This document shows, piece by piece, positions 13,503 to 14,890 of a stretch of DNA of 32,000 nucleotides. The notes beneath the pieces were generated by a model. The model did no database searches and was not told where the DNA came from. It saw only the letters and a list, made by a program, of their open reading frames with translations. Source of the DNA: Bacteroidales bacterium. Lineage in GTDB: Bacteria; Bacteroidota; Bacteroidia; Bacteroidales; FEN-979. The stretch is from contig JBBRTX010000015.1 of assembly GCA_038244085.1 (NCBI GenBank), positions 4,997 through 36,996 of the forward strand, in the 5' to 3' direction. Positions within the stretch are counted from its first letter, which is position 1; each line of letters begins with the position of its first letter. Both the position numbers and the translations under genes were made by a program.

Positions 13503-13799
13503 TTAACAACAGTTTCCGCCATCACTGCAATCGCAGGTTGGTTCGGTGCCGCGAAGCAATCCATTGATGATGCCGGCAGCGCAGCCAACGCCGGATTTTA
13601 CGGTTATAGCCCCGGGAGCGCAGTTCAGGGCACAGGCTCCACATTCCATGCACAGATCTTTGTTCCGGATCACCGCTTTCCTGTTTTCTATTTCGAAAAC
13701 ATGGTGTGGACAAACGATCAGACACATCCGGCATCCGTTGCATTTCTCTTCGTCAAGCCGGAGAGAGACCACATTCGATAAATAGGCAAATCCGCTCAT
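13503..13799 (-). CDS. hgcB: HgcB, [4Fe-4S] ferredoxin partner for mercury methylation
   Basis: CNGCRMCLIVC and CMECGACALNC (each CX2CX2CX3C), isolated conserved-type Cys73 (GVGCA), C-terminal vicinal CC; directly downstream of hgcA. Confidence 0.93.
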   Translation of the reverse strand: MSGFAYLSNVVSLRLDEEKCNGCRMCLIVCPHHVFEIENRKAVIRNKDLCMECGACALNCAPGAITVKSGVGCAAGIINGLLRGTEPTCDCSDGGNCC

Positions 13800-13813
13800 C
13801 GTATTGTTGAGTT

Positions 13814-14890
13814 TTATAAGGTGATAAATCGTGAAATGATCCAGCCAGCCAGGCCCAGTCCCGCCAGGATTATCTGGATGGGTAACCAGGCTTTCATCTC
13901 TTTCTGAACGCCCGAAAGAGAGGTAAACGTTGACGACCCTGTGAAATTCATGGCCATAAACGAGGAGAGTCCTCCGACGATCAGGAACCAGGCCATAATT
14001 TCAATGGGATTCGTCCCCATCATTCCGAAGAGATCCAGGATGACAGCGGTGAGAAGACCCAATAAAAGTCCCTTCACAGAGAATCGGCGGAAGCGAATCC
14101 ATGGCAGCAGGGCAGGCGTAAGGGCGCAGCCGGCCAGATAGCCTGAAAAGAGATTTACCACAGCCTTCCATCCTGTTTGGAATGCAGTGTCAATTGAATA
14201 TCCACTGGGAGATAACCCGGAAAGCAGGAAAAATATGGCCGGAACCAGCAGCATATAATATCTGCCGTAAAACAGATCGACAGGAATCAGCTTAAGCCTT
14301 TCCACCAAGGGGAAAGTTACCGTTCGCATTTCCTCTGTCGCCTTCATACCAGCCTCCCTGAAAGCTTTTATATCGGAAGCCCTGACTGGTCCGAAAATGA
14401 CAGAGAATCCAGTCATCCTTTTAACTTCATGAGCAGCAACACCGGTGGCACAGAGTTGCGGCAGAATGAGCTTCCGGTGATCCACTACCTGATCGAGATG
14501 ATGAATACGGATGCGCCGAACAACCTCTTTTGTGCTGAATATGCCTTTGCCAGCTGCGCACCATACATTGATCCCTTTGGTATTAATTACCAGGATCCAG
14601 GCATCAATTCCATCCAGCCCCTTTCGGAGATGGTCAAAACTCAGTTTGTAGTTTGCCGTAACATAGACCGATGAATTGCTGTCAGGATTGCCCGTTGCAT
14701 AGATTCCCGGTGTTATTTTGTATTTCATTCTTCCGATTGACCAGCGAACTTTCAATGTTTGCAGGTAATCAGACTTTGTCCATTTTGTAGCCACGATCGG
14801 AACCGAAAATGCCTTGGCATGCAGGTGACCGGTGATAAAAGTCGGGGTCATATTAAGCGTAATATTTTTTCTTAATCCAAAAAGCCACAT
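13814..14890 (-). CDS. hgcA: HgcA, membrane corrinoid protein for mercury methylation
   Basis: [13 protein letters not shown] cap-helix motif, [35 protein letters not shown], and multiple C-terminal TM helices; alternative ATG at 14851. Confidence 0.95.

Follow-up and report, generated by a model that had tools for sequence, protein, structure and literature searches.

The locus analysed here raises the question of whether a candidate hgcA-hgcB pair in a Bacteroidales genome is a genuine mercury-methylation pair and, if so, under what control it stands. No route to the neurotoxin methylmercury other than HgcAB is known. The pair lies on the minus strand of a 32-kb stretch of contig JBBRTX010000015.1, the whole of which is referred to below as the window. 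Our analysis makes it highly probable that this is a genuine Bacteroidales hgcAB pair, forming the distal half of an arsR-acr3-hgcA-hgcB unit with one predicted promoter and putative control by ArsR. The elements of this unit are as follows.

16306..16344, minus strand: predicted Bacteroidota-type promoter with an overlapping candidate ArsR-type operator (consensus scan and inverted repeat)
15961..16293, minus strand: arsR-like gene for an ArsR/SmtB metalloregulator, 110 aa from M12 (PF01022, NF033788)
14853..15911, minus strand: acr3, arsenite efflux permease, 352 aa (TIGR00832, Pfam SBF)
13814..14851, minus strand: hgcA, corrinoid methyltransferase of the mercury-methylation pair, 345 aa from the likely start (NF040863)
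13503..13799, minus strand: hgcB, 2x[4Fe-4S] ferredoxin partner, 98 aa (NF040864)

Family membership was assessed with NCBI curated equivalog models and their cutoffs (NF040863, 275 bits; NF040864, 99; NF003195, 306; NF043039, 285). The HgcA_corrinoid model NF040863 matched over its complete profile (1-325 of 325) with 429.9 bits (E 6e-129), and HgcB_ferredoxin NF040864 matched with 123.1 bits (E 3e-36), scores that place the gene identities far beyond chance. Together with the residues described below, they identify a genuine, intact hgcA-hgcB pair at the level of sequence.

The maximal open reading frame (ORF) of hgcA extends over 13814..14890 on the minus strand and encodes 358 aa counted from the first ATG, its 13 leading codons covering the 3' end of acr3 (38-nt overlap). 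The database protein P0001 is identical to the window HgcA at 345 aa, and nearly all homologues have 343-347 aa. Because of these lengths and of the overlap with acr3, the 358-aa start was rejected in favour of M14, and the true start is most likely the ATG at 14851..14849, 1 nt past the acr3 stop codon (14855..14853). Numbered from M14, the cap helix NVWCAAGK comprises residues 95-102 and includes Cys98, the counterpart of Cys93 in the model strain. This segment fits the pattern N(V/I)WCA(A/G)(A/G)(K/R) with its cobalt-ligating Cys, is unchanged across a 33-sequence HgcA alignment and is also found in 44 other loci from many phyla. HgcA further carries the LPQLxATGVAAHxVK block and GPVRASDI. 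Its corrinoid-binding domain, similar to that of the corrinoid iron-sulfur protein (CFeSP), is followed by the membrane domain of at least four transmembrane helices that defines the family; five are predicted here, corresponding to hydrophobic segments in the C-terminal half (~193-218, 231-249, 256-281, 282-303 and 321-345). An AlphaFold2 model based on 33 homologues (mean predicted local distance difference test score, pLDDT, 83.5) has the same arrangement, with an alpha/beta corrinoid domain, a short helix at 96-101 and then five long C-terminal helices. The top Foldseek match of this model was the HgcAB integrative model 9a0b_A (E 2e-22, 45% identity), with CFeSP corrinoid domains next.

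The hgcB gene lies 3' of hgcA at a spacing of exactly 14 nt (13800-13813). Its product contains Cys at 20/23/26/30 and 50/53/56/60, forming two CX2CX2CX3C motifs (CNGCRMCLIVC and CMECGACALNC), and outside these clusters it has an isolated Cys73, a CxC at 89/91 and a CC at its end (97/98). In a set of 46 relatives, all keep the eight cluster Cys and 43 keep Cys73, and the CC tail is common to the Bacteroidota relatives. Cys73 and the C-terminal Cys pair have a putative role in handling Hg. Curated model, adjacency to hgcA, both clusters, Cys73 and the CC tail all identify the protein as HgcB.

The nearest HgcA relatives (60-73% identity) were all from Bacteroidales or Bacteroidota metagenome-assembled genomes (MAGs), and more distant ones were from Planctomycetota (<=57%) and other phyla (~<=52%). 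A neighbour-joining tree of 45 HgcA sequences placed the window protein inside the Bacteroidota clade. Six kilobases from hgcAB, an S46 peptidase has its best matches in Bacteroidota, at up to 80% identity. A binning artefact is excluded, because this Bacteroidota-like peptidase shares the same 87-kb NCBI contig with hgcAB. The window has other Bacteroidota-type features, including a protein sorted by the type IX secretion system (T9SS) and an Arm-DNA-bind_5 integrase, and by this evidence the pair is assigned to a Bacteroidales-type genome. One other copy of the locus DNA was found, on a 7-kb Logan contig from run SRR19962014.

These results bear out much of a preliminary description of this DNA, which had reported an HgcA with NVWCAAGK, LPQL...GPVRA blocks and a multi-helix membrane domain, 14 nt upstream of a 98-aa HgcB with two CX2CX2CX3C clusters, Cys73 and a terminal CC; all of these motifs were found, as were the five hydrophobic segments. 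A profile search grouping the protein with CFeSP had been named as a possible refutation, and in the event the HgcA and HgcB models passed and the CFeSP model failed. The suggested HgcA phylogeny nested the protein among Bacteroidota, and the proposed Bacteroidota host agrees with the relatives, the tree, the S46 peptidase and the T9SS sorting domain. The ORFs do lie within the span 13503-14890 given for the pair, but the implied HgcA start at 14890 gave way to the likelier one at 14851. The same description covered hgcAB and overlooked the arsR and acr3 genes upstream.

With these two genes included, the order on the minus strand is arsR-acr3-hgcA-hgcB, with gaps of 49, 1 and 14 nt. The acr3 product matched the TIGR00832 equivalog with 441.4 bits (cutoff 282.8) over profile positions 1-327 of 327, and Pfam SBF with E 7e-57. 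It is 86% identical to the acr3 product of locus L010, where the gene is directly 5' of hgcA, and 80% identical to that of L001, where it is 3' of hgcB. The arsR product matched Pfam HTH_5 (PF01022; E 1e-11) and the HTH_metalloreg model NF033788 (66.9 bits, cutoff 55). Its maximal ORF reaches 16326 and would encode 121 aa, and homologues begin at a Met equivalent to M12; the longer start was rejected for M12, the extra codons (33 nt) being conserved promoter/operator DNA. Three Cys of the regulator, in CxxGD, in YC and at the C terminus, are conserved in seven aligned Bacteroidota hgc-linked homologues. We therefore read hgcAB not as a free-standing pair but as the distal half of a compact four-gene unit under one predicted promoter.

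The -7 promoter box of Bacteroidota has the consensus TAnnTTTG. The minus strand between 13400 and 16600 was scanned for TTTG-N17-23-TAnnTTTG, and both the single match to this pattern and the single TAnnTTTG box lay ahead of arsR. The predicted -33 element TTTG is at 16344-16341 and is separated by a 20-nt spacer from the -7 box TATGTTTG at 16320-16313. This box forms the 8-nt spacer of a perfect inverted repeat, AATGTCG-N8-CGACATT, at 16306-16327 (arms 16327-16321 and 16312-16306). The 22-bp repeat, AATGTCGTATGTTTGCGACATT, is a candidate operator, probably for ArsR; it is arranged 7-8-7 around the -7 box, and its position is conserved across loci. The motif core (CGTATGTTTGCG / CGTAWRTTTGCG) occurs once in the window, at an expectation of 0.13. 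A sigma-70 promoter scan gave 7 matches vs 6.0 in shuffled sequences, that consensus being uninformative for a Bacteroidota genome. Cobalamin and SAM (S-adenosylmethionine) riboswitches were sought with Rfam over the whole window and no family reached its gathering score, so riboswitch control of the operon was rejected.

Conservation of the motif links these hgcAB loci to arsenic resistance operons. Six related Bacteroidota hgc loci each have a single copy of the core, just 5' of arsR, and 50 other hgc loci have none. Of the 120 loci that a metagenome scan with CGTATRTTTGCGNCAT yielded, most were discarded as chance matches with no ars gene nearby. In the 17 that were kept, an arsR-like gene adjoins the motif, immediately downstream in all but one, and the aligned loci usually have the arsR start codon ~13-30 nt 3' of it. 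Thirteen of the 17 run on into arsC, arsM and/or acr3 with no hgcAB match, as full arsR-to-acr3 operons in L063, L088 and L095 and on shorter contigs, which may end early, in the other ten; two (L105 and L129) lead straight into hgcA-hgcB. The four closest HgcA relatives that were looked up have the order arsR-arsC(LMWPc)-hgcA-hgcB-acr3, and acr3 immediately 5' of hgcA was otherwise found only in L010. Because the motif heads hgc-free ars operons and because of the gene orders in the relatives, hgcAB in this lineage is an optional addition to an otherwise ordinary ars operon, whose regulator and operator it shares, and the window is a rearranged minimal version.

Several variants of this layout were observed. 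Many Bacteroidota hgc loci have two extra genes directly 5' of hgcA (L001 5032-6025, L005 4982-6004, L008 4978-5994, L022 2118-3138), one for a ~100-aa protein with a CGCExxCCPP-type Cys cluster (no Pfam match for the L005 copy) and one for a 233-aa DsbD_2/CcdA-like membrane protein; neither is in the window. L001 has an arsC-arsM fusion. A second type of palindrome, GACGTATTAATACGTC, lies about a dozen nt 5' of the -7-box motif in L001, L005, L007, L022, L061, L072 and L081, perfect in L005 and near-perfect in the six others, and is absent in the window and L008; it may be a second operator. L179 (1387-7453) and L177 (1476-7429), both among the closest relatives, have the motif further 5'; between it and their arsR-arsC-hgcA-hgcB-acr3 lie a gene of 247 aa and an ABC exporter (MacB/FtsX plus ABC-ATPase), which suggests a longer operon including the exporter.

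For the window, the following mechanism is proposed. Transcription would begin just downstream of 16313 and read through all four genes. A dimer of the ArsR-like protein would cover the -7 box and keep the operon off until a ligand binds; arsenite is the probable releasing ligand because acr3 is in the unit and sibling ars operons exist, and its binding would induce arsenite efflux together with HgcAB. By homology with the enzyme of Pseudodesulfovibrio mercurii ND132, HgcA would be a corrinoid protein anchored in the membrane, with Cys98 of the cap helix as the cobalt ligand. Methylation of its corrinoid by SAM would yield methylcob(III)alamin, from which HgcA would transfer the methyl group to Hg(II), and the two-[4Fe-4S] ferredoxin HgcB would re-reduce the corrinoid. 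Methyl transfer from SAM to Hg(II) has been described for the ND132 enzyme (Zheng et al. 2024, PMC11588087). The residues found essential by mutagenesis, HgcA C93 and HgcB C73/C94/C95 in the summary given by PMC11588087, all have counterparts in the window pair, and all catalytic residues are present.

Several observations weigh against parts of this reading. The first is the regulator, in which the R773-type As(III) site (Cys32/Cys34/Cys37, ELCVCDL) is represented by its first Cys alone, aligned in TCISGD, in a comparison with what we take to be the R773 ArsR sequence. Its ligand is uncertain because one R773-type Cys of three is retained; a different three-Cys (S3) site formed from its other conserved Cys is possible, and the closest solved relatives of the protein are persulfide sensors of the BigR/SqrR type. 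Co-transcription of the four genes is read from spacing and consensus scans. The interval that separates hgcB from the converging kinase gene has no terminator-like site; the closest one on the hgcB strand falls inside the kinase gene (13437-13423), and such sites were no commoner in the region than by chance (3 in an intrinsic-terminator scan vs 3.5 in shuffles). As to activity, the searched literature contains no demonstration of Hg methylation by a Bacteroidota member, and Peterson et al. 2020 (10.1101/2020.04.01.018762) state that no Bacteroidales member had been experimentally confirmed as a methylator, in line with the preliminary description, which had noted that few Bacteroidota carriers are biochemically tested. 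In model organisms, the presence of hgcAB and its transcript level are poor predictors of methylation rate (10.1101/2022.10.17.512643).

Other roles for the pair were weighed against Hg methylation. A non-methylating corrinoid/ferredoxin paralogue, either a CFeSP-type protein of the acetyl-CoA pathway or an HgcAB-like fusion-family protein, might be considered because Pfam, which has no HgcA family, sees just the shared CdhD corrinoid domain (PF03599) in HgcA and because its solved sequence relatives are CFeSP large subunits: a PDB sequence search matched no HgcA chain, and the best matches were 2h9a, 4c1n and 4djd (E ~1e-10). This alignment, however, spans just the C-terminal ~125 residues of CFeSP (315-439 of 445) and pairs the Cys-bearing cap-helix segment of HgcA with a CFeSP helix that has no Cys. 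The rest of CFeSP consists of an N-terminal Fe-S domain and a TIM-barrel domain, and the window protein has five transmembrane helices instead. The CFeSP gamma subunit model NF003195 and the HgcAB-like fusion model NF043039 gave 70 and 204 bits, both below their curated cutoffs, compared with an HgcA equivalog score well above its own, and hgcA and hgcB are two separate genes. Both identities were accordingly rejected; a paralogue is already refuted at the sequence level, and we regard this explanation as extremely improbable.

Another idea, unlikely in our judgement, is that HgcAB is a working part of arsenic or metalloid resistance whose native substrate is an arsenical or a thiophilic metalloid, with Hg methylation as a side reaction; the chemistry could be, for example, a corrinoid-dependent methyl transfer or reduction complementing ArsM/Acr3. 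The window and each of the four closest relatives examined have the pair inside an ars operon, the same promoter/operator motif stands ahead of ordinary arsR-arsC-arsM-acr3 operons, and HgcAB uses SAM as ArsM does (PMC11588087). The hypothesis has been raised in 10.1101/2022.10.17.512643, where As(V) was reported to affect the hgcAB knockout of ND132 more strongly than the wild type, but the summary of the same work states that hgcAB loss caused no significant drop in As resistance. Moreover, no arsenical product of HgcAB is reported in the searched literature, many hgcAB loci of other phyla are without ars linkage, and co-localisation could reflect co-selection in reduced, metal-rich habitats. 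It seems similarly unlikely that hgcAB of this Bacteroidales lineage serves the ars operon as a functional module, induced by arsenite and acting natively on an arsenical or metalloid in the position otherwise held by arsC/arsM; if this were true, arsenic exposure, not mercury, would switch on Hg methylation by these abundant fermenters. A physiological role in reductive dehalogenation of halomethanes, with an incidental ars linkage, would draw on a bioRxiv report (10.64898/2026.04.26.720869) of CCl4 dechlorination by heterologous HgcAB and by model methylators. This is one 2026 preprint on enzymes of the Desulfovibrio/Geobacter type; nothing in the window, in terms of dehalogenase-associated genes or halomethane metabolism, supports such a role, and the conserved ars context would stay unexplained, which leaves it very unlikely. 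A mercury-methylation pair within a unit under predicted ArsR control is the preferred interpretation.

Outside the unit, the following features were recognised in the window.

373-4161, minus strand: end of a probable integrative element, which runs off the left window edge
373-1737, minus strand: DUF5906/P4-primase-like protein of the element, which also has a 105-aa ORF
2198-2536, minus strand: HTH_17 excisionase-like protein of the element
2875-4161, minus strand: tyrosine integrase with Arm-DNA-bind_5, of the element
8317-13469, plus strand: three consecutive signal-transduction genes (a dCache/PAS HisKA kinase of 940 aa, a stand-alone receiver and a receiver-PAS-PAS-HisKA_3 kinase of 617 aa)
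22312-31056, minus strand: alpha-glucan utilisation cluster (the T9SS-sorted protein, three GH13 alpha-amylase-family enzymes, a cyclomaltodextrinase N-terminal-domain protein and a GH77 4-alpha-glucanotransferase)

The GC content is 0.36-0.40 over positions 1-5000 and 0.42-0.48 elsewhere in the window. It is unlikely that hgcAB is cargo of the integrase element, given the distance of 9.6 kb, the element's low GC compared with a host-like 0.47 in the hgc operon, and the absence of a tRNA gene. The gene for the 617-aa kinase converges on hgcB and ends 33 nt from the hgcB stop; a link between the two-component genes and hgcAB was rejected, since this adjacency is not conserved in other loci. An 844-aa ORF at 18984-21518 on the plus strand had no Pfam or NCBIfam match.

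The locus is not new in kind, because earlier publications cover both hgcAB in Bacteroidota and its association with arsR, acr3 and arsC. In 2020, 10.1101/2020.04.01.018762 and PMC7438021 described hgcA-positive Bacteroidales as a monophyletic HgcA cluster; they also indicate that an appreciable part of the hgcA genes or transcripts of some lakes and of thawing permafrost can come from Bacteroidota; Fig. 6 of PMC7438021 places acr3, arsC, arsM and arsR beside hgcAB in many MAGs. Repression of hgcAB by an ArsR-like protein and arsenic-responsive transcription were demonstrated in ND132 (10.1101/2022.10.17.512643), and a 2025 study reported that in situ hgcA transcription is lower where an arsR-like gene is present (PMC11984097). 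Neither the promoter/operator motif nor its occurrence ahead of hgc-free ars operons was found in the searched passages of these papers. Such pairs are known by the hundred, and the NCBI pipeline already names such HgcA proteins automatically; the motif and its wider occurrence are a modest increment, and one more Bacteroidota carrier by itself changes little. The published proposal of a coupling between mercury methylation and arsenic stress could nevertheless be tested unusually cleanly on this locus, which has a minimal set of four genes, a single predicted promoter and a candidate operator of defined extent (22 bp); the operator motif is also found at the head of ordinary ars operons.

Compared with known systems, the window pair resembles the HgcA/HgcB of P. 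mercurii ND132 in its two-gene architecture, NVWCAAGK with a cobalt-ligating Cys, five transmembrane helices and an HgcB with two CX2CX2CX3C motifs, Cys73 and a C-terminal CC. The HgcA of the 9a0b chain is 45% identical (Foldseek E 2e-22), and an ArsR-family gene lies upstream in both. ND132 is a sulfate reducer, whereas the window host is a presumably fermentative Bacteroidales member, and the ND132 methyltransferase has been characterised, whereas the activity of the window pair is predicted. ND132 has no ars genes by hgcAB and its ArsR2 has a four-Cys site (10.1101/2022.10.17.512643); in the window, arsR and hgcA are separated by acr3, and the regulator's conserved Cys number three and occupy other positions. 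The CFeSP large subunit (AcsC/CdhE; 2ycl, 4djd) has a single domain in common with HgcA, the Rossmann-like corrinoid domain PF03599 (E ~1e-10; Foldseek TM ~0.37 over ~147 residues), but lacks the Cys cap-helix ligand and the membrane domain, and it serves acetyl-CoA synthesis.

Other counterparts are the hgcAB loci of Bacteroidales and Bacteroidota MAGs (Peterson et al. 2020; McDaniel et al. 2020, PMC7438021), which share with the window the monophyletic HgcA clade at 60-73% identity, an ArsR-like regulator, the promoter/operator motif and the acr3 linkage. They differ in gene order, the closest being arsR-arsC-hgcA-hgcB-acr3 and others having arsR, the small Cys-rich protein and the DsbD_2-like gene before hgcA-hgcB, whereas the window has arsR-acr3-hgcA-hgcB without an arsC or DsbD_2 gene. 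Canonical arsR-arsC-arsM-acr3 operons (L063, L088, L095 and others) share the regulator family, acr3 and the -7-box/inverted-repeat motif; they contain arsC and/or arsM without hgcAB, whereas the window contains hgcAB without arsC and arsM.

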